Position numbers and translations under genes: made by a program. This document shows, piece by piece, positions 1 through 13,408 of a DNA stretch of 13,408 nt. The first letter of the stretch is position 1. Each line of letters opens with the position of its first letter. The stretch is from a virus (Duplodnaviria > Heunggongvirae > Uroviricota > Caudoviricetes). The notes beneath the pieces were generated by a model. It was not told where the DNA came from. It was given only the letters and a program-made list of their open reading frames with translations, and ran no database searches. The stretch is from IMG/VR virus record IMGVR_UViG_2700989274_000003. One strand, written 5' to 3'.

Positions 1-1
1 A

Positions 2-1282
2 TTAATTTTTCATTGCTTCGTTATGGGGCATGGTTGGGGCAAACTCGCTTAACTGTGTATTTAACAAAGCTACCTGTGCATTATTGTTTTCAGACATCCA
101 TTTTCCGTATACCTGAAATACCATTTGCGCATCTGCATGGCCCATCTGGTTTGCTATAAATGCCGGGTTAGCACCAGCTGTCAGCGACCAGCAGGCATAA
201 GTATGTCTCGACTGATATGATTTTCGATGGCGGAGTCCGGCACGTTTTATCGCTGCGTCCCACATCTGCCTTATTGAGTCAACGGTAAAATGGTCACCAT
301 AATTTTTTACTCTCGCTGACACTTCAGGTTGAAAAACAAAGGTGCATTTATGTTTTTCTGTTCTGCCATACTCTCTGAGGTGAACATCAATGATATGCTC
401 TTTGCTCAGTCTCGTTAATGTCATCTGACTCCGGAGAGCGTCGATTGCTGGCTTAATAAGATGAATGACCCGATTGGTTCCCGCCTGTGTTTTTGGTACC
501 GTGAAACGGTCTTTTGCTAAATTTCTCCTGATCATCATTGTTCCATTTTTCAGATCTATGTCCTCCCATCCAAGTGCACACAGCTCACCAGGGCGAACGC
601 CAGTATAAACAGAAACACACCATAAATTTTTGGCTTGCTGATTTCTGCACGCATCGATAAGACGGATGAATTCCTCCCGCGAAAGAGGATCCGGAATGGT
701 TCTTGATTCCTTTAATGGCGAGATCCCCTTAAACGGGTTATCTGCCAGGTAACCGTTATCAACACCAAACTGGAACACGGCGTTAAGATTTGTCATGTAA
801 TTATTTACAGTTACAGCCGATCTCCCTGGTTGTGTAACAATATAGTTACTTTTGGGGATCTGGTATCCAGTCAGTAGCTCTTTACGAACCTCCAGTAATT
901 TTTCTTTATTAATCGATGAGGCAAGATTTTTTTCACCGATTATGCTCAGGATATTTTTGATGACGGCACGGTATGTGTTGAGTGATGTTTTTGCGACTTC
1001 AGTTTCTTTCAGTGCCAGAAATTTTTCAGCCAGTTCTTTTATGGTTAAATCTTGTCGGGTCTCACCAAATTTTTCCAGATTGCGTGAGGAGGGAAACTGT
1101 TTTGCATAGTCGAAAACACCAGTTTTTATTGCGTAACAAACAGAGGCGCGTAGCTCACCTGCAACGCGCCTGTTTTTTGCTGTGTCAGGAACCCCCAGGT
1201 TTTCCCTGACTCTTACGCCTTTATAAACAAACCAGATACGTAATTTCCCTCCATGGTTTTCCACGCCTGTCGGATATTTCAT
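2..1282 (-). CDS. int: Phage tyrosine integrase (site-specific recombinase)
   Basis: ORF 2..1297 on minus strand with TAA stop at 2-4. The C-terminal region carries tyrosine-recombinase-like motifs (SRHTYACW, MGHADAQMVFQVYGKW). Start is probably ATG 1282 (MKYPTGVE..., weak GAGA SD) rather than 1297, which has no SD. It sits at the prophage edge; the att site would lie left of the window. Confidence 0.88.
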   Translation of the reverse strand: MKYPTGVENHGGKLRIWFVYKGVRVRENLGVPDTAKNRRVAGELRASVCYAIKTGVFDYAKQFPSSRNLEKFGETRQDLTIKELAEKFLALKETEVAKTSLNTYRAVIKNILSIIGEKNLASSINKEKLLEVRKELLTGYQIPKSNYIVTQPGRSAVTVNNYMTNLNAVFQFGVDNGYLADNPFKGISPLKESRTIPDPLSREEFIRLIDACRNQQAKNLWCVSVYTGVRPGELCALGWEDIDLKNGTMMIRRNLAKDRFTVPKTQAGTNRVIHLIKPAIDALRSQMTLTRLSKEHIIDVHLREYGRTEKHKCTFVFQPEVSARVKNYGDHFTVDSIRQMWDAAIKRAGLRHRKSYQSRHTYACWSLTAGANPAFIANQMGHADAQMVFQVYGKWMSENNNAQVALLNTQLSEFAPTMPHNEAMKN

Positions 1283-1316
1283 TTCAATTTCTCTCATTAG
1301 TTAGTGTGGCTTTTAG

Positions 1317-1568
1317 TCAAGTAAGATGACGTCTTGGTCTTGCTGATGCCTGGCGCTCAATCCAGCGATCAATTTCTTCCAGGTTGTAAAAGCATGGACT
1401 GTTATCCCATGGCATACCGTCATGAGCGACATGCTTATATTCCCTTCCTTCCATAAACGATTTTTCCCGGGCCTTTTTTAACGTACCTTTTTTTATTCCT
1501 TTCAGCGCAATTAACTGCTCTTCGGATACCCATTTGCCGGGAGAGACAATCATGATTACTTCGCTCAT
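1317..1568 (-). CDS. xis: Putative excisionase / small DNA-binding protein directly upstream of int
   Basis: 83-aa ORF immediately upstream of and co-oriented with int, the classic xis position. Assignment is by position and size only. Confidence 0.5.
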   Translation of the reverse strand: MSEVIMIVSPGKWVSEEQLIALKGIKKGTLKKAREKSFMEGREYKHVAHDGMPWDNSPCFYNLEEIDRWIERQASARPRRHLT

Positions 1569-1640
1569 CGATTTCTTTATCTCTTACATCAGACGAGCGC
1601 CGGTTGCAGAATACCAGTCACAACCGGCGACAGTTGAACA

Positions 1641-4112
1641 TTAAGAATCAGCCTGACTCGGGATCAGTTTTTGCCAGATAACTGAAACGTATTTTGCCTG
1701 GTAACGGGCGTCATCAAGTGCATTATGGCGCTCACCTTCGAATGGAATAGCCGTTCTGGCATCGAAGTCTATGGCTTTCCCCAGCTCAACGATTGTGCGT
1801 ACATCGCGATCGTTGTAGTAACGCCACGGGCAGGGGATCCCCTGCCGTTCGTATGAACGGCGCAAAATCGTGTTGTCGAAGTTGGCTCCATTTCCCCAGA
1901 CCTGAACAAAAAATTCACCGGAGTTTTCGTCGATAAATTCCCACAATTGTAACAGTGCATCATCTAACGGGATTTCATCGGTCATAATGGCAGATTGCGC
2001 TTCGCGTGATTGCTTAAGCCACCATTTAATGGTGTCCCGATCAATGACTCCGCCAGCAGTTTCCAGATCGATAGTCTTACTAAATTCCGGTCCCATATCT
2101 CCGGTTTGCGGATCGAAAAATATTGCACCTATTGAGATGATCGGGGCATCAGGATTTTTTCCCATGGTTTCAAGGTCGATCATTAGATGGTCACACGTCC
2201 TGCTGGTGGATGTGATTTCTTGATGACCGTTCACCTTAATTGAGTGATCTGCCGTCTCGCCAGTTTCATTATCGCTATCGTGATGCTGATTGCCGCCAGT
2301 GTTCTCCTTGTGTGGATGTTCAGCGCCTTCCATTTCCTCCGGATCATCTTCCTGAACTTCAATCTGATACTCTTCATCGAATGTTTCCTGGTATGTTGCG
2401 TCGCCCATTACCGCGCCACAATCAGGGCAGTTGCCGCCGCCGGTCTGACCGCAGGCGGTGCAGACTTTTTCCACTTCCTGTTGCGCCACTGATTCAGGCT
2501 GTTTCGTTTCTGGCTCGTTTTGTAACGCATTTGGGCTGTTTTGTTCCGCTTTTTGGTAGTTCCGTTCCGATTCATGCTGGTTCTGGTTCACAGAATCGCG
2601 GGTCTGGATCCCCTTAACCCATTTCGGATCATTCGGGTCACTAATCCCTTCAACAAATTCACCACGTGATGCAGCAAGCAACTTATCGGCGTCAGGCTGG
2701 ATGATATTGGCTGCCTGCATAATTTTGTTTACTTCGTCAGCGGTAACTTTTATCGGCTCTGGTTGTTCTGAATCTTCAGCGGTATCTACATTTTGCGGTA
2801 AGCCCGTGTATGTGCCATTTTTTCGGGCAAAATATTCTTCTTTTGTGATTTCAGTGGCGCCAGCAGCCAGTGCCTTATCCAGACCAGAAAGTTTGTTTGC
2901 GCGACCGTATTTTTCTCCGTCCTTATCTGCGAAGAGGAAATAGAACGGCCCCTCACGCTCTACAGATGGTTCAGCTTCCGGCGCGGTTTCATTTTTTGGG
3001 ATATCAGATACCTCAGTTTCCACTGCATCAGTTTGTGTTTCTGATGACTGGAGAACATCAACAGTGCCCAGGTCTGTTTCTTCATTCTCAAACACGCCCT
3101 TTGTCGTCAGGTATTCGCAGATATATTTGTTCAGTGCTACGGGATCTTTGTGAATGTCGATCGGACGCTCACGGACAAGGCCAAAAATAGTTTGGCGGTC
3201 GTAGCGAAGGGCATCAGGCTGTTTGCGCATTGATGCCGAGATACGCTTCCAGTCTTCGCGGTCGTTGTCGATAACTTCATTTTTTGCCCAGCGATGGATG
3301 CTGCCGTCAATGTTTCCGGCATCCACATCACCAGGCCAGAGAGCGTAGGCCAGTTCGTCATCCAGTGTTTTCCATGTCTGCTTGTATTCGCGATGAATGG
3401 CAGCAATGACCGGGCTGATTTTTCCTGTTGAATTTTCAGTGTACTGTTGATTGGCTCTGGCGCGGGCGAGATCAACAACAGACGTGTATTTTCCGGTTTC
3501 CTTGCGTTCACCTTCGCGACGTTTTTTCCAGATGCGCATCTCTGCCTGAATTTCGGGCCATTTAGCACCAGGAATACATTTATGCTTAACCCACCCAATG
3601 GCGTGCAACTTAAGCTCCGGATACATGGCGTTAACTTCTGGCATTTTCATCAACGCTTCAACGATATGTCCGTCGAATGTTGCCATGTCTTCCTGCAACA
3701 ATTCCTGTGCGCTAATAACCATATCAACGGTGATGTTTTCACATGTGTCGAACTTAACCATGACAGCGTTCTGTACTTCAGGGGCCAGCTTGTCAAAAGT
3801 GACGTTCATCGGATCGGATTCAGTCTCAACCGGGACAAAAGAAGCAGACTCCTCATCCCAGCGGTTTTCCTGCATATATTCAGCATCCCATGAATCGAGG
3901 GCAGGGCGGGGTATGCCAGGTTTATCCTCGCAGACAATAAATTTATAAGCGCAGTCCTGAGCAGCCGGATAATGTTCCAGGAATTGCCAGTGAAATTTTG
4001 CTCGAGCACGGCGTTCGTCGCCAGCTTCAATGGCTGTGGCTACAGCCACAGCGCCTTCTTCCCTTGTTGCCAGTTCGTCAGGAATAGCGGCGCAAATAAA
4101 GACTTTACTCAT
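1641..4112 (-). CDS. Large phage exonuclease (often annotated exodeoxyribonuclease VIII-like) with C-terminal DEDDh 3'-5' exonuclease domain and internal zinc ribbon
   Basis: ORF 1641..4148; likely start is ATG 4112 (MSKVF..., GAGGT SD about 9 nt upstream). C-terminal about 200 aa carry DEDDh motifs: IDLETMG, VWGNGANFDNTIL, HNALDDARYQA. CTACGQTGGGNCPDCG (coding about 2411-2465) looks like a CxxC...CxxC zinc ribbon. Acidic low-complexity linkers. Confidence 0.8.
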   Translation of the reverse strand: MSKVFICAAIPDELATREEGAVAVATAIEAGDERRARAKFHWQFLEHYPAAQDCAYKFIVCEDKPGIPRPALDSWDAEYMQENRWDEESASFVPVETESDPMNVTFDKLAPEVQNAVMVKFDTCENITVDMVISAQELLQEDMATFDGHIVEALMKMPEVNAMYPELKLHAIGWVKHKCIPGAKWPEIQAEMRIWKKRREGERKETGKYTSVVDLARARANQQYTENSTGKISPVIAAIHREYKQTWKTLDDELAYALWPGDVDAGNIDGSIHRWAKNEVIDNDREDWKRISASMRKQPDALRYDRQTIFGLVRERPIDIHKDPVALNKYICEYLTTKGVFENEETDLGTVDVLQSSETQTDAVETEVSDIPKNETAPEAEPSVEREGPFYFLFADKDGEKYGRANKLSGLDKALAAGATEITKEEYFARKNGTYTGLPQNVDTAEDSEQPEPIKVTADEVNKIMQAANIIQPDADKLLAASRGEFVEGISDPNDPKWVKGIQTRDSVNQNQHESERNYQKAEQNSPNALQNEPETKQPESVAQQEVEKVCTACGQTGGGNCPDCGAVMGDATYQETFDEEYQIEVQEDDPEEMEGAEHPHKENTGGNQHHDSDNETGETADHSIKVNGHQEITSTSRTCDHLMIDLETMGKNPDAPIISIGAIFFDPQTGDMGPEFSKTIDLETAGGVIDRDTIKWWLKQSREAQSAIMTDEIPLDDALLQLWEFIDENSGEFFVQVWGNGANFDNTILRRSYERQGIPCPWRYYNDRDVRTIVELGKAIDFDARTAIPFEGERHNALDDARYQAKYVSVIWQKLIPSQADS

Positions 4113-4204
4113 TTGTTTTAACCTCATGACAGATTTAAGGATGAACAAATCCCTGCCATTGCTGGCATATAAGAATGAAACCGGATATTTATTACGGAAC
4201 TGTT

Positions 4205-4396
4205 TTAAAGACCTGCCGGGATTTCGATATTATCCTGGTGAATAACTTTATCGACCGGGTAACAGTTACCGGGAATTTTCTGTTCGGTTGCTGCAGTCAT
4301 ACACTCCTGCATTGTCCTGTGAACACTGACTGCAATATCAACTGGCTCTCCGGAAACAAGAAAAACTGTCAGAACAAGCACAAATGCTGAATTCAT
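4205..4396 (-). CDS. Small protein with N-terminal signal-peptide-like hydrophobic segment (hypothetical)
   Basis: ATG 4396 overlaps the stop of the upstream gene as ATGA (translational coupling). Product MNSAFVLVLTVFLVSGEP... is 63 aa with two Cys. The longer ORF 4205..4450 has no better start. Confidence 0.5.
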   Translation of the reverse strand: MNSAFVLVLTVFLVSGEPVDIAVSVHRTMQECMTAATEQKIPGNCYPVDKVIHQDNIEIPAGL

Positions 4397-4581
4397 TGTG
4401 CACATCCTTTTGGCATCAGACGTAAACGAGCCAGCATTGAAACAATGCATATTTTATTTAATAGCTCCCGTTCTTGTTTTCTCTTGTTAATGGCATCTTC
4501 AGTAAATACTGGGTTACTGATAGTGACACCAATTTCAAAACAACCTTCAGACGTATTAACGTTTGGTAATAACGTTTTCAT
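4393..4581 (-). CDS. Hypothetical small protein (62 aa), early-left operon
   Basis: Start ATG 4581 (MKTLLPNV...) is preceded by GAGGA SD at about 7 nt. Stop TGA overlaps the next gene's ATG. The upstream part of ORF 4393..4686 lacks an RBS. Confidence 0.5.
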   Translation of the reverse strand: MKTLLPNVNTSEGCFEIGVTISNPVFTEDAINKRKQERELLNKICIVSMLARLRLMPKGCAQ

Positions 4582-4750: not shown

Positions 4751-4793
4751 AAAAAGGGCGGCAGAGCAGTCACGGAGTAAAACTGATACCGCC
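4751..4793 (-). terminator. Possible intrinsic terminator on minus strand (GC stem GGCGG/CCGCC, long loop, U5 tail)
   Basis: Minus strand reads GGCGG-(26 nt)-GCCGCCC-TTTTT. The loop is unusually long, so this is weak. Confidence 0.2.
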
Positions 4794-5148
4794 AAACGTC
4801 ACCAGAAAATTGATAACAGAGGGCGTTGCAGCGGGGTTGTCACTTAAGCGTATGGTCAACCTGACAACCCGGTGTCCTCAACGGGGAAGAAATAACCCCG
4901 CCATACTTACCGCCGCACCATTTCGCGGGTTGCCACAACCGGAAGCGCACGGTCGACGAAAATTTAACGACAGGCTATCTATGAACCAGCTACCTCGCCG
5001 TGCGCTTTCGCGTTATGGTCTGACTTTTCAGGGAAATATCCTTTCAGTAAACTGTCAGTGCCGGATGCTCACCCGTGTCCGGCGCACGCACTCCACCTCA
5101 CCCGTGGAGAACTCCTTAATTACCAACCTTAGCTTCGTTGGTTAGCTA

Positions 5149-6704: not shown

Positions 6705-6935
6705 ATGAAAAAATCAGAAGTATTAGGCTATTTTGGCGGAGTTGTTAAAACAGCCGCAGCTCTAGGAACGTCAAAAACCACAGTCAGCATGTGGGGGGAA
6801 GAGGTTCCGTGGAAATGGGCGTTGCTAATTCAGGCAGTCACTGCCGGGGCGCTCAAATATGAGTTACACATACCGACGGTTGTCATTCCCGGTTCTGATC
6901 ATAATCCGCCTTCTAACCAAGGGGGGGATTCATGA
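6705..6935 (+). CDS. Cro/YdaS-like HTH regulator
   Basis: ATG 6705 with GGAG SD 6 nt upstream. HTH-like GGVVKTAAALGTSKTTVSMWGE resembles the Cro/YdaS family. Divergent from cI. Stop overlaps the next gene's ATG as ATGA. Confidence 0.78.
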   Translation: MKKSEVLGYFGGVVKTAAALGTSKTTVSMWGEEVPWKWALLIQAVTAGALKYELHIPTVVIPGSDHNPPSNQGGDS

Positions 6936-7357
6936 AAATCAAGCATGAACACATCCGCATGGCGATGAATGCCTGGGCGCATCCGGACGGCGAAAAAGTA
7001 CCGGCTGCGAAAATTACCAAAGCGTATTTCGAGCTGGGAATGACGTTCCCGGAACTGTATGACGACAGCCATCCGGAAGCCCTGGCTCGCAATACCCAGA
7101 AAATTTTCCGCTGGGTAGAGAAAGACACCCCTGATGCAGTTGAAAAAATTCAGGCGTTGTTACCAGCGATCGAAAAGGCAATGCCACCTTTGCTGGTGGC
7201 CAGAATGCGCAGCCACAGTTCAGCTTATTTTCGGGAGCTGGTGGAGACGCGGGAGCGACTGGTGAGAGACGCTGATGATTTTGTCGCAGTGGCAATCGCC
7301 GGTTTCAATCAGATGAACCGTGGTGGCCCGGCAGGAAATGCTGTGGCAGTACATTGA
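6932..7357 (+). CDS. YdaT-like (CII-analogue) regulatory protein
   Basis: 141-aa ORF translationally coupled to the cro-like gene, in the position of cII/ydaT. The N-terminus MKIKHEHI... is recalled from the Rac YdaT family, from memory only. Confidence 0.6.
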   Translation: MKIKHEHIRMAMNAWAHPDGEKVPAAKITKAYFELGMTFPELYDDSHPEALARNTQKIFRWVEKDTPDAVEKIQALLPAIEKAMPPLLVARMRSHSSAYFRELVETRERLVRDADDFVAVAIAGFNQMNRGGPAGNAVAVH

Positions 7358-7428
7358 CTGACAATAGCCATATCGAATCGCTTCCGGCAACTCGTGAGTA
7401 AAAAGATTCGGTATCAGAAGAGGTGAGT

Positions 7429-8499
7429 ATGGCTAACGCCTGGCTCAGATTATGGCATGACATGCCAAATGACCCTAAGTGGCGAACAATTGCCAGGGTG
7501 TCAGGGCAGCCAATTGCAACAGTGATGGCAGTGTATATCCACCTCCTGGTGAGCGCGTCACGAAATGTCACGCGAGGTCACATTGATGTCACGACAGAAG
7601 ATTTGGCAAGTGCGCTCGACGTGACAGAAGAGGTAATTGATTCAATTTTGCAGACGATGCAGGGGCGGGTACTTGATGGTGATTTAATCACTGGATGGGA
7701 AAAACGCCAGGTGCTGAAAGAGGACAACGGCAATATTTCGCAAACCGCAAAATCTCCGGCAGAGCGCAAGAGGGCGCAGCGAGAGAGGGAAAGAAAGCGG
7801 GAACAAAATGGCGATTGTCACGGCGCGTCACGAAATGTCACGCACATGTCACGACGAGTCACGACAGATAAAGATACAGATAAAGATACAGATCAAGAAG
7901 ATCAAAACACTATGGTCCATGGCGTAAAAAACGCCACGAACCAGGCAGGGGATGTTCAGACCGTCAATCCTGGTCAGCCAGCAGGCACGACACCGGAAGC
8001 CGATTCAGCGTATGCGCTGAAAGCCGATTCGGGCGCTGTGCAGCAGGTGATGACCCCAAGGCCGGAGCAATCACACCAACTGCAGCAGCCTGAAGCCGAT
8101 TCCGCCATTCAGCGGGAAGCCGATCGGGTAGTCCCGGAAAACACCGGGCTGTCTGTGGGACGAGTGGATTATCCGGATGTGTTCGAACAGGTCTGGCGGG
8201 AGTACCCGTTGCGTGCCGGAGCAAACCCGAAGAAATCCGCTTTCAGTGCCTGGAAGGCCAGATTACGCGAGGGGGTGCCACCAGAGGCCATGCTGGATGG
8301 CGTGAGGCGTTACGCAAGATACTTGGCGGCTACCGGGAAAACGGGAACGGAATTTGTTCAGCGAGCGACGACGTTTTTTGGACCGGACCGGAATTTTGAG
8401 AACCCCTGGTTGCTCCCGGTAAGCGGCACGAACAACCAGCGTTGTGTGAATCATATTTCTGAACCGGATACCGAAATTCCACCGGGCTTCAGGGGGTAA
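7429..8499 (+). CDS. Phage replication initiation protein (O-like), containing intragenic origin iterons
   Basis: ORF 7423..8499; ATG 7429 (MANAWLRLW...) is preceded by GAGGTG SD. It occupies the O-gene position after cro/cII-like genes and carries iteron arrays plus an AT-rich tract internally, as lambda O carries ori-lambda. The central linker is low-complexity (EADS repeats, KRAQRERERKRE). Confidence 0.7.
   Translation: MANAWLRLWHDMPNDPKWRTIARVSGQPIATVMAVYIHLLVSASRNVTRGHIDVTTEDLASALDVTEEVIDSILQTMQGRVLDGDLITGWEKRQVLKEDNGNISQTAKSPAERKRAQRERERKREQNGDCHGASRNVTHMSRRVTTDKDTDKDTDQEDQNTMVHGVKNATNQAGDVQTVNPGQPAGTTPEADSAYALKADSGAVQQVMTPRPEQSHQLQQPEADSAIQREADRVVPENTGLSVGRVDYPDVFEQVWREYPLRAGANPKKSAFSAWKARLREGVPPEAMLDGVRRYARYLAATGKTGTEFVQRATTFFGPDRNFENPWLLPVSGTNNQRCVNHISEPDTEIPPGFRG
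7553..7593. repeat. Iteron cluster 1: four GTCAC(G/A) repeats phased at 10-11 bp
   Basis: GTCACG at 7557, 7567 and 7588, and GTCACA at 7577. A 21-bp segment GCGCGTCACGAAATGTCACGC (7553-7573) is identical to 7824-7844. Confidence 0.6.
7817..7910. repeat. Iteron cluster 2 (five GTCACG repeats at 10-11 bp phasing) followed by AT-rich tract with 12-bp tandem duplication; putative replication origin
   Basis: GTCACG at 7817, 7827, 7837, 7848 and 7858. This is followed by GATAAAGATACA x2 (7867-7890) and the A/T-rich GATCAAGAAGATCAAAACAC. The iteron-then-AT-rich layout matches lambda-type ori. Confidence 0.6.
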
Positions 8500-8539
8500 G
8501 TGTTGATTTCTGGTCATGAGGTAATTTTCAGGAGGGCTT

Positions 8540-8962
8540 GTGGCAAAAGTTTTTACACAAGAAGAGCGAGAAAAAATTAAAGGGCAGGTTGTTGAACTCG
8601 TACGCCAGAGTGGGCGTGAGACGTTACGGCAACTGGAAGTCAAGACAGGTGCGACAAGATATCTGATGAGCGTTCTCGCAAGAGAGCTGGTTGCCAGCGG
8701 CGATGTATACAACTCCGGCTACGGGTTATTCCCCTCTGAACAGGCGCGTAAGGACTGGCAAAACGCCCGCAAAAAACTCTCGAGGGCAAAGGTGAAGAAA
8801 CCTGCTGTGGTTGATCCGGACCTTATCTGGTCATCACCTGACGGAGAAATACGTCGCTACGACAGTCGCCTAAACATAATCTGTCGCGAGTGCCGGAAGA
8901 GTGAAGCTATGCAGCGTGTACTGGCTTTCTATCAGGGTAATTTTCAGGAGGCGGTACTGTGA
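8540..8962 (+). CDS. Hypothetical protein (140 aa)
   Basis: GTG start 8540 with AGGAGG SD (8530-8535). The 16-bp RBS segment GGTAATTTTCAGGAGG is repeated exactly before the next gene. No family recognised. Confidence 0.6.
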   Translation: MAKVFTQEEREKIKGQVVELVRQSGRETLRQLEVKTGATRYLMSVLARELVASGDVYNSGYGLFPSEQARKDWQNARKKLSRAKVKKPAVVDPDLIWSSPDGEIRRYDSRLNIICRECRKSEAMQRVLAFYQGNFQEAVL

Positions 8963-9376
8963 GTGAAATTAGCTATCAGGCTTCAATTACCGCTGGCATT
9001 CGCATCAAAGGAGAGGAGCATGGAAATAAAACCAGAGGATGAGTTAAGCAATATCGTTTTATTTCCGGTAAAAGAGGATGACCCTCGTAATCAGGTTAAT
9101 TTTCTTTATGAGCCATCGGAAAGACCATATTGTCATCACGCCTCTGTCCGGGTTGACGAAAAAGAGCGTCAGGTCCGCTGTAAAATCTGCGGTGCAGTTG
9201 TGGAGCCATTTGACTGGATGCTCTCTGTGGCGAAAAGAGAAACCAGACTGGCAGATGATGTAAGGCTCTTGCGTCAGGAGGAGCGGGAAAGGCGAAAAAA
9301 TATAGAAAAGCTAATTCAGATTGAGCGTAACGCGAAAGCGCGGATACGCAGGGCGACAAAATCCAGAACTGAATAA
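8963..9376 (+). CDS. Hypothetical protein with CHH...CxxC putative zinc-binding motif and C-terminal basic coiled coil (alternative start ATG 9020)
   Basis: ORF 8963..9376. GTG 8963 follows the repeated AGGAGG segment; ATG 9020 has a strong GGAGAGGAG SD. Motif YCHHASVRVDEKERQVRCKICG, then LLRQEERERRKNIEKLIQIERNAKARIRR. Confidence 0.6.
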   Translation: MKLAIRLQLPLAFASKERSMEIKPEDELSNIVLFPVKEDDPRNQVNFLYEPSERPYCHHASVRVDEKERQVRCKICGAVVEPFDWMLSVAKRETRLADDVRLLRQEERERRKNIEKLIQIERNAKARIRRATKSRTE

Positions 9377-9469
9377 TTAAATTTAGCTCTGTTAAAAATT
9401 TAATCCTTAACCGGAGGGATTTCTGCACCCTCAGAACATCAGGAGGCCGCCCGAAAGGGCGGTAGTTAA

Positions 9470-9652
9470 ATGCGAAAGTTTAAAATAATTATTGAAACGG
9501 GAATAGCCGGTGGAGATTTCGAGGATGAATTCGAAGTGGATGATGATGCGACGCCTGATGAAATACATGACGAAGCAAAAGATATTTTCTTTAACTACTG
9601 CAATTACTCATATCACGAAATAAAAGACGAAGAGGAAGAACAAAATGGCTGA
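9470..9652 (+). CDS. Small highly acidic protein (60 aa)
   Basis: Product MRKFKIIIETGIAGGDFEDEFEVDDDATPDEIHDEAKD...KDEEEEQNG. AGGAGG (9441-9446) is separated from the ATG by a GC hairpin with a GAAA loop (9447-9462). Overlaps the next ORF by 8 nt. Confidence 0.5.
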   Translation: MRKFKIIIETGIAGGDFEDEFEVDDDATPDEIHDEAKDIFFNYCNYSYHEIKDEEEEQNG

Positions 9653-9821
9653 TTTTGGTTCAACTAAATACAACGTCAGTTTTGAAGAATGGCATGAACT
9701 GTTAATGGACTATGCAGAGTTACGTGGTGGCAGTGCTGCTGATGCTGAAGCATGGCGTGATGATTATGAAGCAGGAAAAACTCCGGTCGAAGCATATTGT
9801 GATGAGTGGGGCGATGAATGA
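9645..9821 (+). CDS. Small acidic protein (58 aa; MADFGSTKYNVSFEEWHELLMDYAELRGGSAADAEAWRDDYEAGKTPVEAYCDEWGDE), not in supplied ORF track
   Basis: Hand-translated. ATG 9645 with GAGGA SD about 8 nt upstream. Overlaps the upstream gene (ATGGCTGA) and the downstream gene (ATGA at 9818-9821). Confidence 0.5.
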   Translation: MADFGSTKYNVSFEEWHELLMDYAELRGGSAADAEAWRDDYEAGKTPVEAYCDEWGDE

Positions 9822-10134
9822 GCGAGGTTAATTATCAGGAAGGGCATGAAACGGCGGGGCAAGCAAAAACAGTGGCATGGCGATATCGCTACGTGAAAAA
9901 AAAGGCGTTACGGACTTTCAGGGGAAGTAGTGGTCTGGTGACTGGAAATATGTACCGAAAAAAGAGGATTGTAACGACAGGCCGAACTATGAAATTCAGG
10001 CCTTATTCACTGCCCCGCCAGTCCCGGTTACATCAGAAGAACTGGTTAAAGCTGTGCACTTTTATGAACAACTAAAACGCGAAAATCCACCAGCATCCGG
10101 AAACCTGATTACAGATTCCCAGATAAGGCAATGA
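9818..10134 (+). CDS. Hypothetical gene with frame discontinuity: frame A (9818...) carries two in-frame A AAA AAG heptamers; the protein-like downstream frame (9931..10134) is the -1 frame and has no start codon
   Basis: ATG 9818 is coupled to the upstream gene. Frame A after 9905 is R/K-rich and looks out-of-frame. The -1 frame 9931-10134 (…KEDCNDRPNYEIQALFTAPPVPVTSEELVKAVHFYEQLKRENPP…) looks protein-like but opens directly after a TAG (9928-9930) with no ATG/GTG/TTG. Heptamers at 9898-9904 and 9958-9964. Confidence 0.35.
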
Positions 10135-10230
10135 GCTACCTGGCGCAGAACGGGCTGATAAGTATGGGGAATGTTTTACGATGAATATTTAGACTAAAGA
10201 GTTTGTAACGCTATGTAAGTGATTTTTTCT

Positions 10231-10258
10231 GGTTTAGATATTTATATGTCCGGCCAAA
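10231..10258. repeat. Imperfect direct repeat copy 1 (GGTTTAG..ATATTTA..TGTCCGG..CAAA) upstream of the small membrane-protein gene
   Basis: Roughly 80% identical to 10502-10533 by eye, with indels. The two copies bracket the 59-aa gene. Confidence 0.4.
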
Positions 10259-10304
10259 TTGAGGTGTGTTTAAATGTAATTGCACATTGATTGTAGGAGG
10301 AATA

Positions 10305-10484
10305 ATGAAAAACGCATTGCAGTTTTTGTTTGTTGCGTTCTGGTTGTTCGTATCATGTATGCCCATCATCTTCACAGCAAGGTATATGGAAAAAGTTGAT
10401 GTTTTGATATTAATATTTGGATATATAAATGCCCTTTTTTTAGGGGTGTTCATGGCGGTCATGTGCATTGAATACTGGCGGTAA
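10305..10484 (+). CDS. Small hydrophobic protein, two predicted TM helices (59 aa), in AT-rich island
   Basis: ATG 10305 with AGGAGG SD (10295-10300). Product MKNALQFLFVAFWLFVSCMPIIFTARYMEKVDVLILIFGYINALFLGVFMAVMCIEYWR. Surrounding DNA (about 10140-10560) is markedly AT-rich. ORF track start 10266 has no RBS. Confidence 0.55.
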   Translation: MKNALQFLFVAFWLFVSCMPIIFTARYMEKVDVLILIFGYINALFLGVFMAVMCIEYWR

Positions 10485-10501
10485 ATACAGCGAACGCCAT
10501 T

Positions 10502-10533
10502 GGTTTAGTTGGATATTTACTGTGCCGGACAAA
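10502..10533. repeat. Imperfect direct repeat copy 2, immediately upstream of the hok promoter region
   Basis: GGTTTAGTTGGATATTTACTGTGCCGGACAAA, compared by eye with 10231-10258. Confidence 0.4.
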
Positions 10534-10538
10534 AACGG

Positions 10539-10567
10539 TTTGCGGGGAAATCTTAGTTAAGTAGAAT
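10539..10567 (+). promoter_or_regulatory. Candidate hok mRNA promoter (-10 TAGAAT at 10562-10567, weak -35 about 10539-10545)
   Basis: TAGAAT lies about 7 nt upstream of the 5' fold-back element (10572-10585), where the hok mRNA 5' end is expected. Confidence 0.35.
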
Positions 10568-10629
10568 GACTGCGGGTGCTTGAGGCTATCTGTCTCAGGC
10601 ATGAACACCAAAAGGCAGATAGAGAAAAG

Positions 10630-10694
10630 CCCCAGTTAACATTACGCGTCCTGCAAGACGCTTAACATTAATCTGAGGCCATATCTATGCGACA
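10630..10694 (-). ncRNA. sok: Predicted Sok-like antisense RNA (coordinates approximate)
   Basis: Minus-strand sigma70-like promoter: -35 TTGACC (plus 10724-10729), 16-bp spacer, -10 GCTAAT (plus 10702-10707). The transcript would be antisense to the mok SD (GAGG 10675-10678) and start codon (10687). The 3' end is not defined; no clean terminator was found by eye. Confidence 0.3.
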
Positions 10695-10746
10695 CATAGA
10701 GATTAGCCTCTTACGGACCGAAAGGTCAAGGAGAAGCAGGCTATGA
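10687..10746 (+). CDS. mok: mok-like upstream reading frame (19 codons) translationally coupled to hok
   Basis: ATG 10687 with GAGG SD 8 nt upstream. Stop TGA at 10744-10746 overlaps the hok ATG 10743-10745 (ATGA). Much shorter than R1 mok. Confidence 0.4.
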   Translation: MRHIEISLLRTERSRRSRL

Positions 10747-10898
10747 AGCAGCAAAAGGCGATGTTAATCGCCCTGATCGTCATCTGTTTAACCGTCATAG
10801 TGACGGCACTGGTAACGAGGAAAGACCTCTGCGAGGTACGAATCCGAACCGGCCAGACGGAGGTCGCTGTCTTCACAGCTTACGAACCTGAGGAGTAA
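10743..10898 (+). CDS. hok: Hok/Gef-family type I toxin (51 aa), HokD/RelF-like
   Basis: Product MKQQKAMLIALIVICLTVIVTALVTRKDLCEVRIRTGQTEVAVFTAYEPEE. Single N-terminal TM helix and the conserved TRKxLCE...EVAxFxAYE Hok signature. AGGAG SD 9 nt upstream. Confidence 0.9.
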   Translation: MKQQKAMLIALIVICLTVIVTALVTRKDLCEVRIRTGQTEVAVFTAYEPEE

Positions 10899-10966
10899 GA
10901 GACCTGGCGGGGGAGAAATCCCTCGCCACCTCTGATGTGTCAGGCATCCTCAACGCACCCGCACGT

Positions 10967-10995
10967 AACCCGCTTCGGCGGGTTTTGTTTTTTCC
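10967..10995 (+). terminator. Rho-independent terminator of hok mRNA (stem AACCCGC/GCGGGTT, UUCG loop, T-rich tail)
   Basis: AACCCGC-TTCG-GCGGGTT followed by TTGTTTTTT. It lies directly after the 3' fold-back element (10948-10962). Confidence 0.7.
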
Positions 10996-11065
10996 TGGCA
11001 TTCTGGTTTACAATTCGCACGCCAGCCTGAACAACTGGCACCTGCTGCGCCAGCAGAGACAACCG

Positions 11066-11344
11066 ATGGCGCACGATACCAAATTACACAATTCTAATGA
11101 TTCTGCCGTCTTTGCCAGTAGGTGCGGACGGCGTTTTCACGCATTCAAATCAGACTGGTTCCAGCATCCTCCATGCACTGAAGAGCAGGCGGAATGGATA
11201 ATTCAGTGTTACCGCAGGCGCGGATACGAGGTTAAGAAAGCTCTTAGCCTCGACTACCGTCACTGGATAATCTCAGTCAGACTCCCTTACTCCGAACGCC
11301 CACCGCGTTCATCCCGCACATACCAGCAACGGATCTGGAGGTAA
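11066..11344 (+). CDS. rem: Rem-like small protein (Qin-prophage rem position, between hok and ydfU)
   Basis: ORF 10937..11344; ATG 11066 (MAHDTKLHNS...) is the first start outside the hok terminator. Synteny hok-rem-ydfU-Q matches my recollection of K-12 Qin. The protein-level match is from memory, not searched. Confidence 0.5.
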   Translation: MAHDTKLHNSNDSAVFASRCGRRFHAFKSDWFQHPPCTEEQAEWIIQCYRRRGYEVKKALSLDYRHWIISVRLPYSERPPRSSRTYQQRIWR

Positions 11345-11345
11345 C

Positions 11346-12395
11346 GTGCGGGTATTACTTCGACCTGTTCTGGTACCGGAACTCGGGGTGGTGATCGTTA
11401 AGCCGGGCCGTGAATCCATGCCGGTATTCCACAATACCCGGGTACTGGTGGAGCCGGAACCGAAAAGCATGCGTAATCTGCCGTCCGGGGTCGTTCCTGC
11501 CGTTCGCCAGCCGCTGGTGGAAGACAAAACATTGCTGCCGTTTTTCAGTAACGCACGGGTGATTCGTGCTGCTGGTGGTGCTGGTGCATTGTCTGACTGG
11601 CTGTTGCGCCATATTAAATCCTGCCAGTGGCCACACGGCGATTATCACCACAGTGAAACCGTCATTCACCGTTATGGTACCGGCGCAATGGTGTTGTGCT
11701 GGCACTGCGACAACCAGCTGCGTGACCAGACATCCGAATCACTCGAGCAACTTGCTCATCAAAACCTGTCAGCATGGATGATTGACGTCATCGGTCACGC
11801 AATAAGCGGTACGCAGGAGCGTGAATTATCTCTGGCTGAATTATCCTGGTGGGCGGTCCGAAATCAGGTGGCGGATGCGCTACCTGAAGCGGTATTACGT
11901 CGCTCGCTGGGATTACCAGCGGAAAAAATCCGCTCAATGTACCGCGAAAGCGACATCGTACCGGGAGAGCAGACCGCCACCAGCATATTGAAACAGCGCA
12001 CAAAAAATCTTGCACTGTTGCCTCACGCCCACCAGGAACAACACCCACTACAGGAAAGGACGGTGGTAAGCATCACCGTTGATCCTGAGTCTCCGGAATC
12101 TTTCATGAAGCTACCTAAACGTCGCCGCTGGGTTAAGGAGAAATACACTCGCTGGGTGAAGACACAGCCGTGTGCTTGCTGCGGTATGCCAGCCGACGAT
12201 CCGCATCATCTGATTGGTCACGGGCAGGGCGGAATGGGAACCAAAGCACATGATCTTTTTGTGTTGCCTTTATGCAGAAAGCATCACGACGAACTGCATA
12301 CGGATACCGTGGCATTTGAAGAGAAGTATGGCTCCCAACTGGAGCTGATTTTTCGATTTATCGATCACGCGCTGGCAATTGGTGTGCTGGCCTAA
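11346..12395 (+). CDS. ydfU: YdfU-like DUF968 protein with C-terminal HNH-like CxxC..HH..C..HH motif
   Basis: 349-aa ORF with GTG start 11346 and GGAGG SD 5 nt upstream. Same length and position as Qin ydfU. C-terminus PCACCGMPADDPHHLIGHGQGGMGTKAHDLFVLPLCRKHHDELH resembles HNH endonuclease metal-binding signatures. Confidence 0.75.
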   Translation: MRVLLRPVLVPELGVVIVKPGRESMPVFHNTRVLVEPEPKSMRNLPSGVVPAVRQPLVEDKTLLPFFSNARVIRAAGGAGALSDWLLRHIKSCQWPHGDYHHSETVIHRYGTGAMVLCWHCDNQLRDQTSESLEQLAHQNLSAWMIDVIGHAISGTQERELSLAELSWWAVRNQVADALPEAVLRRSLGLPAEKIRSMYRESDIVPGEQTATSILKQRTKNLALLPHAHQEQHPLQERTVVSITVDPESPESFMKLPKRRRWVKEKYTRWVKTQPCACCGMPADDPHHLIGHGQGGMGTKAHDLFVLPLCRKHHDELHTDTVAFEEKYGSQLELIFRFIDHALAIGVLA

Positions 12396-12411
12396 TTTTG
12401 TGGAGTAAGTT

Positions 12412-12459
12412 GATGCGTGATATTCAGATGGTTCTTGAGCGTTGGGGAGCGTGGGCGGC
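12412..12459 (+). CDS. Antiterminator Q (phage 82/Qin QuuQ-like), 5' fragment only (16 codons) truncated by N gap
   Basis: ATG 12412 with GGAG SD 7 nt upstream. MRDIQMVLERWGAWAA matches the N-terminus of 82-type Q proteins as I recall them. The reading frame runs into the N run. Confidence 0.55.
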
Positions 12460-12469
12460 NNNNNNNNNN
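12460..12469. other. Run of 10 N (assembly or scaffold gap of unknown true length)
   Basis: nnnnnnnnnn in the sequence. The flanks differ sharply in GC content and gene content. Confidence 0.99.
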
Positions 12470-12628
12470 ATATGTACAGGCTCGCACCTGGGCTTGCCTG
12501 ACTGACCGCAGGCCGGCGACGACAAGGTGGAAAAGTTCGGCGTGTGGCTCTGGCGGCAACGATCCCGCGAAGGGCGGACGGTGCTTGAGCTGTTGAACGT
12601 AAGCATGCGGGCAAACCATCTTGCGCGA

Positions 12629-12790
12629 CTATGCCGGATGCCACCTATGCGGCAGCAGCTCTGCAATCTCACTAGCTCGCTGCGTCGGCAACCGTCTCAG
12701 CACATCCTTGAGATAGGCATACGGATCGTGCCCATTATTACGGGCCGACTGGATCAAACTCATGATCGCAGCAGCGCGCTTGAGCATGCG
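12629..12790 (-). pseudogene. IS66 transposase (TnpC) C-terminal fragment
   Basis: C-terminus ...RAAAIMSLIQSARNNGHDPYAYLKDVLRRLPTQRASEIAELLPHRWHPA resembles IS66 TnpC C-termini. The upstream part of ORF 12629..13408 is low-complexity and not transposase-like. Confidence 0.5.
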
Positions 12791-12811
12791 AACCCGCGCC
12801 GAGCATTTGAG

Positions 12812-13001
12812 AAGGCAACGGGATGAACGCTGGCTGGATAGCCGTGGTTTTCTGGGTAAGCAGGCGAATCCATTTGTGGACGAGGTTGGCATTGAGGCTG
12901 TAGCCCAAGGCGATGTTTGCGATGGAGGCACCGGGTTCAGAACACTCCTGAATGACCTGGGCCTTGAAAGATTTGCTGTAGGTACGGCGCTGAGGGCGCA
13001 T
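12812..13001 (-). pseudogene. IS66-family TnpA (orf1, HTH) N-terminal fragment
   Basis: MRPQRRTYSKSFKAQVIQECSEPGASIANIALGYSLNANLVHKWIRLLTQK...PAFIPLP, in a different frame from the TnpC fragment. tnpB and most of tnpC are absent. Confidence 0.45.
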
Positions 13002-13184
13002 GGAAAATCCGCTTGATGGGCCATGGCCTTCGGCGGCGGTGTCGGGAAGGTGTGTTGGCCGGACGGATACTGTTGAACTACGTTGTCTGGGGCAACGGAA
13101 GTGTTTCGGCCCGACTCTGGAACGCGATCCGCAGCGACGACTGGGCAATTCCGCACGTTGGCCTGAGCAGCCTCGGGGAAATCG

Positions 13185-13206
13185 TCGTCTGGGCGCGCCC
13201 AGACGA
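13185..13206. repeat. Perfect 22-bp palindrome TCGTCTGGGCGCGCCCAGACGA
   Basis: Seen directly in the sequence. GC-rich, with no T tract after it. Confidence 0.8.
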
Positions 13207-13408
13207 GTTTCCGCCAAGGAACATGCAGACAAGCAAGGGGCTGCGGGCACTCGGCTACAACGTGAGGATCGGTGTTTGATCGAGGCGCCTGTGGCACACG
13301 CAGGCTGAGGAGCCAGGCGCTGTCCATTGCCTGATCAGGCCGCCCCCCTGTGCCTTGCCTGAGCAGTTGACCTGCATCAATGGGGCGGGAGAACGCTGCA
13401 CATTGCAC

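Follow-up and report, generated by a model that had tools for sequence, protein, structure and literature searches.

A short open reading frame at 9818-10134 of the window (the whole stretch of 13,408 nt that we analyzed, from IMG/VR virus record IMGVR_UViG_2700989274_000003) raises the question of whether it is expressed through a programmed -1 frameshift or is simply broken. It holds two A_AAA_AAG heptamers in phase with its start codon and a protein-like stretch in the -1 frame, and an earlier note, written from the letters alone, had offered both readings. Comparison with homologous loci led us to conclude that the region, with a relic reaching 10184, is very probably a pseudogene of a Qin/Rac-like lambdoid E. 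coli early-region gene of the phrog_660 family, with an A8 tract and a TAG codon as its lesions.

Layout of the locus and its prophage surroundings

Reading and translating the region bore out the coordinates given in the earlier note: ATG 9818, both in-phase A_AAA_AAG heptamers (9898-9904 and 9958-9964), the TAG at 9928-9930 in the -1 frame and the open stretch running from 9931 to TGA 10132-10134 are all where it had placed them (Table 1). Translation of the three forward frames gives a zero-frame ORF of 85 aa (9818-10075), which reads MSEVNYQEGHETAGQAKTVAWRYRYV-KKK and then continues past the A run into the R/K-rich tail already noticed from the letters, a tail that contains ALRTFRGSSGLV. 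The zero-frame codons at the A8 tract are GTG(9893) AAA AAA AAG, which puts the heptamer at 9898-9904 in phase, and at the second run (A6+G) the zero frame reads CGA AAA AAG, likewise in phase with ATG 9818. The arithmetic of both proposed slips is also right, with a -1 slip at the first heptamer stopping at the TAG after 8 codons and a slip at the second giving about 105 aa (49 zero-frame and 56 -1-frame codons).

The window is a Qin/Rac-like lambdoid E. coli prophage, in which the DicF RNA, a ydaS-like regulator, a YdaT-family gene, an O-like replication-region gene and DUF977 and DUF7167 genes lie upstream of the remnant; DUF968, rusA and the Q antiterminator are found further downstream. 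Many complete E. coli genomes match the 701 nt around the remnant at 100%. Rfam showed no element inside 9818-10134, and scanning 9300-10950 for promoters and terminators gave nothing of relevance.

We also observed that the right arm of the window (~6900-13408) has its genes at the same coordinates as the MS6198 prophage beside ompW (L009, NZ_CP015834.1), whereas window positions 1-4400, which cover the integrase and exonuclease region, have other coordinates and other ORF sizes than L009. The left arm of the MS6198 prophage has dicB and ydfA-C annotated, and the window differs from the MS6198 record there. Because of this differing left arm, the window comes from another mosaic or integration variant of an MS6198-type prophage.

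Two smaller observations concern the DNA between the remnant and sok. The strongly hydrophobic 59-aa ORF found there is without RefSeq annotation (L001/L009), had only near-identical copies in the phage collection, and gave no Pfam, PHROG or NCBIfam match. Phage records annotate 'hornerin' on an opposite-strand ORF at 10211-10468, which looks spurious.

Table 1. Positions of the features discussed, in window coordinates
Feature	Position	Strand	Remarks
DicF sRNA	4756-4807	-	Rfam RF00039, 76.7 bits
Upstream 58-aa prophage gene, intact, phrog_519	9645..9821	+	TGA overlaps ATG of the putative pseudogene
Putative pseudogene, start codon	ATG 9818-9820	+	shares ATGA 9818-9821 with TGA of the upstream 58-aa ORF
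Putative pseudogene, 5' part in original frame, codons 1-26 (MSEVNYQEGHETAGQAKTVAWRYRYV)	9818..9895	+	
A8 homopolymer, followed by G 9904	9896..9903	+	+2 relative to A6 (Lys-Lys) of ORF-intact homologues
Ancestral frame continued (the earlier '-1 frame', frame of 9817)	9904..10134	+	homologous to codons 29-104 of the 104-aa allele
TAG nonsense codon in ancestral frame	9928..9930	+	
Second AAAAAAG	9958..9964	+	ancestral-frame reading CCG AAA AAA GAG (Pro-Lys-Lys-Glu)
Junction left by older internal deletions, compared with the 171-aa form	10092..10111	+	net 151 nt missing
C-terminal relic of the 171-aa form, third frame (KPDYRFPDKAMSYLAQNGLISMGNVLR, then stop)	10112..10184	+	original TGA 10182-10184
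59-aa strongly hydrophobic ORF (MKNALQFLFVAFWLFVSCMPIIF...)	10305-10484	+	AGGAGG 4 nt before ATG; between putative pseudogene and sok
sok antisense RNA	10574-10745	+	Rfam RF01794, 106.7 bits; overlaps hokD
hokD toxin gene	10743-10898	+	

Intact relatives in the same slot

Related prophages keep the same order of genes (DUF7167 gene, 58-aa gene, homologue of the remnant, hok/sok), and the homologue in that slot is one unbroken ORF. The nearest ORF-intact relatives, L035, L037 and L086, are ~97% identical to the window, with ~20 substitutions over 717 nt. Their continuous ORF of 104 aa shares its start, its flanks and its TGA (10132-10134) with the remnant and ends in ASGNLITDSQIRQ before the stop; the ancestral frame of the remnant ends at this very stop. 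Where the window has A8, these three have A6, and they carry AAT CTG where it reads AAG TAG, and ACA in place of AAA at 9959. More distant intact homologues are 119-171 aa long. The 119-aa ORF of phage vB_EcoM-606R7 (L003, URC08769.1) is colinear with frame 0 of the window and then with frame -1, reading GTG AAA AAA GGC (A6) at the tract and GAG CCG TGG where the window reads AAG TAG TGG, and L004-L006 carry a 171-aa form between the 58-aa gene and hok. The ATGA that couples the 58-aa gene to the remnant is identical in loci with an intact gene. The earlier note had named comparison with homologues as a way of telling its two readings apart, and since these show one continuous ORF and not two conserved frames, the outcome goes against frameshifting and supports the pseudogene it had listed as the alternative.

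The same picture is seen at the protein level. The frame-corrected translation of the window matches the phrog_660 profile as one uninterrupted hit (residues 2-100, E = 1e-26), which bears out the impression that the -1 frame is protein-like, and the intact 119-aa homologue matches it with E = 1.2e-42. Sequence searches of Pfam, NCBIfam and PDB gave no meaningful match for the family, leaving phrog_660 as the only one. With the intact protein as query, 643 protein clusters of 117-209 aa were matched; the 120 listed of these have at least 87% query coverage, and all 12 that were aligned run continuously across the site. The family alignment is most conserved in a core block, GVTDxQGxxWxGDWKYVP, with invariant D33, G36, W39, G41-D42-W43-K44-Y45 and P47.

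The window shares with this lambdoid prophage early-region family the slot, the start, the ATGA coupling and the core AWRYRYVKKG..D.QG..W.GDWKYVP.KEDCNDRP.YEIQALF, and copies that have its N-terminal module are 74-79% identical in amino acids to the frame-corrected window. It differs from the family in having A8 for A6 and in the additional TAG codon, and therefore cannot encode a phrog_660 protein. The codon at the TAG position (codon 37, L003-L129) is hypervariable in intact members, where CAG, CCG, CTG, TTG, ATG, GCG and TGG are found (Q, P, L, M, A, W).

As side observations on the family, this hypervariable codon falls inside the very block in which the protein is otherwise most conserved, and the phrog_660 core is combined with varied N-terminal modules, MSEINYQEGHET in some members versus longer coiled-coil-like leaders in others. 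The C-terminal modules vary too, giving proteins of 104, 119, 140, 148, 170 and 171 aa as well as fusions to DUF551 or ead/Ea22-like domains. Such module shuffling is typical lambdoid early-region mosaicism.

Measured to the end of the relic at 10184, the remnant spans 367 nt compared to 516 nt for the 171-aa form. PhiR42_1-type copies share the loss of 94 of the net 151 nt that are missing, and a further 57 nt were lost at 10098. We had considered the 151-nt deletion, together with G74E, R80H and V85L, as pseudogene decay and dropped the idea, as ORF-intact alleles share this 3' segment (the 104-aa L035 type and the 140-aa TTG type). The internal deletions are older than the A8 and TAG lesions because the ORF-intact 104-aa allele has the same junction, and the deletion and all three substitutions are older changes compatible with an open frame.

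Origin of the heptamers and the question of slippage

In intact genes the A6 tract encodes Lys-Lys and is not in phase for a -1 slip. The first A_AAA_AAG exists only because two A were inserted (A6 to A8), and the second heptamer is in slippery phase only because of this upstream +2 shift; the in-phase status of both thus follows from a single insertion. At the site of the second heptamer, CCG ACA AAA GA(G/A) is found in 74 of 127 sampled loci, and its AAA form also occurs in the ORF-intact TTG lineage, where it is plain Pro-Lys-Lys-Glu. AAAAAAG is present in 5 copies in the window versus 4.4 expected from shuffles, which is no enrichment.

A dnaX-like programmed -1 frameshift at 9898-9904 would yield a 37-aa product ending at TAG 9928 beside the 85-aa product, and the shorter frameshift product has a parallel in dnaX itself. 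The heptamer is identical to that of dnaX, IS911 and IS3-type -1 sites, an X_XXY_YYZ in phase with the zero frame, and the class to which both heptamers belong is the most shift-prone in E. coli (PMC4066793). Unlike those sites, the heptamer layout in the window is not conserved among diverged homologues, the -1 frame is shut after 8 codons instead of opening into a coherent conserved product, the zero-frame continuation is no conserved protein, and neither an SD-like element nor a hairpin was seen as stimulator. A -1 slip here regains the ancestral frame (VKKKGVTDFQGK) only to meet the TAG. Moreover, the heptamer is a +2 insertion missing from all ORF-intact homologues, the zero-frame tail behind it is out of frame and has no homologues, and the A run is polymorphic (A6, A7, A8) inside the clade. 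With the two-frame layout limited to a near-clonal clade, we regard programmed frameshifting at this heptamer as very unlikely.

The search for stimulators covered both heptamers. No GGAG/AGGA-type sequence is present in 9881-9892 or 9941-9952, the intervals 6-17 nt upstream where an SD-like element was looked for, and folds of 40 and 60 nt downstream of either heptamer showed no stable hairpin (z = -0.14, -0.23, -0.67 and -1.82; dG between -8.6 and -12.1 kcal/mol). The hairpin seen downstream of 9964, where the earlier note had proposed to look at a distance of 5-8 nt, is weak, begins 15 nt away (z = -1.8) and does not stand out convincingly from shuffled sequence. Unstimulated V_VV.A_AA.G heptamers shift at ~0.3% in E. 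coli and reach at most ~3.7% in the best 3' context (PMC4066793); the first heptamer, lacking both an upstream SD and a downstream hairpin, is expected at the unstimulated rate. As both heptamers belong to the most shift-prone class, a certain amount of -1 slippage at 9898-9904 is almost certain to occur.

We give hardly any credence to a programmed -1 frameshift at 9958-9964, which would fuse the 49 zero-frame codons to the 56 of the -1 frame. This heptamer is in phase as well and the -1 frame runs open between 9931 and 10134, but the fusion would swap the invariant, most conserved block of the family for ~20 out-of-frame residues. In place of the heptamer, the majority of intact homologues read CCG ACA AAA GAG, the phase depends on the upstream +2 and is wrong in the true frame, and the weak hairpin adds nothing in its favour.

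Alleles and decay across genomes

We scanned IMG/VR with a conserved 22-mer and recovered at least 120 loci. Among the matches listed, all alleles with an intact ORF carry A6 and differ from the window by 6-18%, while A7 and A8 are found only in copies with up to about 13 mismatches to the window in 266 nt; over the same 266 nt, the median number of mismatches is 0.5 for A8+TAG, 1 for A7+TAG and 6 for A6+TAG. Counts in the whole IMG/VR collection are 42 for A8+TAG, 36 for A6+TAG, 3 for A8+TGG and 0 for A6+TGG. The TAG/TGG lineage comprises at least 24 remnant haplotypes with further independent lesions (23 carry TAG and 2 carry TGG), including, among the matches listed, A7, loss of G 9904 (at least 6 loci) and a 1-nt deletion at 10012. 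The listed matches also vary in having or lacking the 57 nt, and at least 4 are truncated. Nonsynonymous to synonymous codon differences are 8:12 for the window, but as the intact family itself has about as many of one kind as of the other (223:209), the count does not discriminate between relaxed and normal constraint.

Of 5,426 complete E. coli genomes, 918 carry the lineage, with the exact A8+TAG 75-mer in ~339. Most of the other genomes among the 918 have A6+TAG (73-nt span, 97.3% identity), which outnumbers A8+TAG, and a minority have A7 (74 nt) or 72-nt variants. These counts were obtained with 73-75-nt megablast queries with unmasked flanks, recording span and identity, given that short allele-specific queries run into low-complexity masking of A8.

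These numbers bear on the possibility that a homopolymer sequencing or assembly error hides an intact gene, as the earlier note had allowed. Homopolymers are error-prone and some of the A7 variants could be errors, but the exact A8+TAG 75-mer is shared by those complete genomes and by 42 IMG/VR contigs from many projects, and the TAG stop is unrelated to the A run. We consider the probability of such an error to be negligible, since recurrence across genomes makes A8+TAG a real inherited mutation, and a widespread one.

Variation in the length of the A run in the population could also point to a contingency locus that toggles ON and OFF through A6, A7 and A8. Efficient transcriptional slippage is usually tied to runs longer than A8. 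Long A runs do give rise to transcriptional slippage (PMC4066793, PMC5009743), so RNA polymerase slipping on A8 might restore the frame in some mRNAs. Against this, the A run varies in length, among the loci listed, only within the clade that is already dead. In addition, the TAG shuts the frame at any A length, as in the window and in all A6+TAG copies, and therefore no ON state exists. A switch of either kind is in our opinion extremely unlikely, and the A tract behaves like a neutral hot spot of slippage within an already dead gene.

Several alleles coexist, namely A8+TAG with the 57 nt (L036, L104), A6+TAG with the 57 nt, and full-length A8+TGG, and their coexistence implies recombination. 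The A8+TGG alleles, with TGG for TAG, are found in 3 contigs in all of IMG/VR (L031:2957-3474, L064:1301-1818 and L131; UViGs 2872180393_000005, 2896595138_000001 and 2869924733_000007). L031 and L064 join a window-like 5' part (A8 and the AAAAAC marker at 9869) to an undeleted 3' part; the +2 is the sole lesion in these two, where slipping by -1 at A_AAA_AAG would yield a full-length 172-aa protein. L131 has an open -1 frame of just 99 codons. We infer that A8+TGG is absent from complete E. coli genomes, where there was no match and no full-length exact hit (the 42-nt right flank was expected to seed). Neither IMG/VR nor the complete E. coli genomes yielded an A6+TGG ancestor.

The most likely origin of these rare alleles is a frameshift mutation that arose recently in a recombinant. 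They are also the only basis for a 'savior' reading, which says that -1 slippage or transcriptional slippage on A8 kept a low level of full-length protein in L031 and L064 and that a frameshifted allele was tolerated for some time until the TAG inactivated it in the lineage of the window. We think this unlikely; it is not applicable to the window, for which it would be at most a historical footnote even if true.

The proposed pseudogene and its annotation

The marks of a pseudogene are present at this locus: continuous colinear homologues, identifiable lesions, and signs of decay in the lesion-bearing clade. In the pseudogene reading, replication slippage would have expanded the A6 Lys-Lys tract to A8 (+2 nt, 9896-9903), and a nonsense TAG at the hypervariable codon would be the second lesion. 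The first 'slippery heptamer' would then be the mutation itself and the second an ordinary Lys-Lys dipeptide. The remnant is probably still translated from 9818, coupled to the upstream ORF, which would give an 85-aa product of 26 authentic residues followed by out-of-frame residues, and rare spontaneous -1 slips at A_AAA_AAG may add the 37-aa peptide. As both products would be without the conserved core, no functional protein would result.

Pseudogene status is already annotated by RefSeq. PGAP/RefSeq MS6198_RS31675 (NZ_CP015834.1 1431022-1431338) marks the same boundaries, 9818-10134, as 'hypothetical protein; frameshifted; internal stop'; it is the same allele in another strain, with window positions 9600-10300 matching at 100%. 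The result touches no open biological question, and its use is as a caution: where an in-phase A_AAA_AAG precedes a protein-like -1 frame, a +2 (or -1) indel in an A-tract encoding Lys-Lys gives exactly that layout, and comparison with homologues tells decay from recoding within minutes. In GenBank phage record ON470612 the 85-aa zero-frame ORF is called a hypothetical protein (URC10046.1), and it is better treated as a pseudogene fragment. The older third-frame relic at 10112-10184 is not included in the MS6198_RS31675 annotation, and the earlier note likewise stopped short of it.
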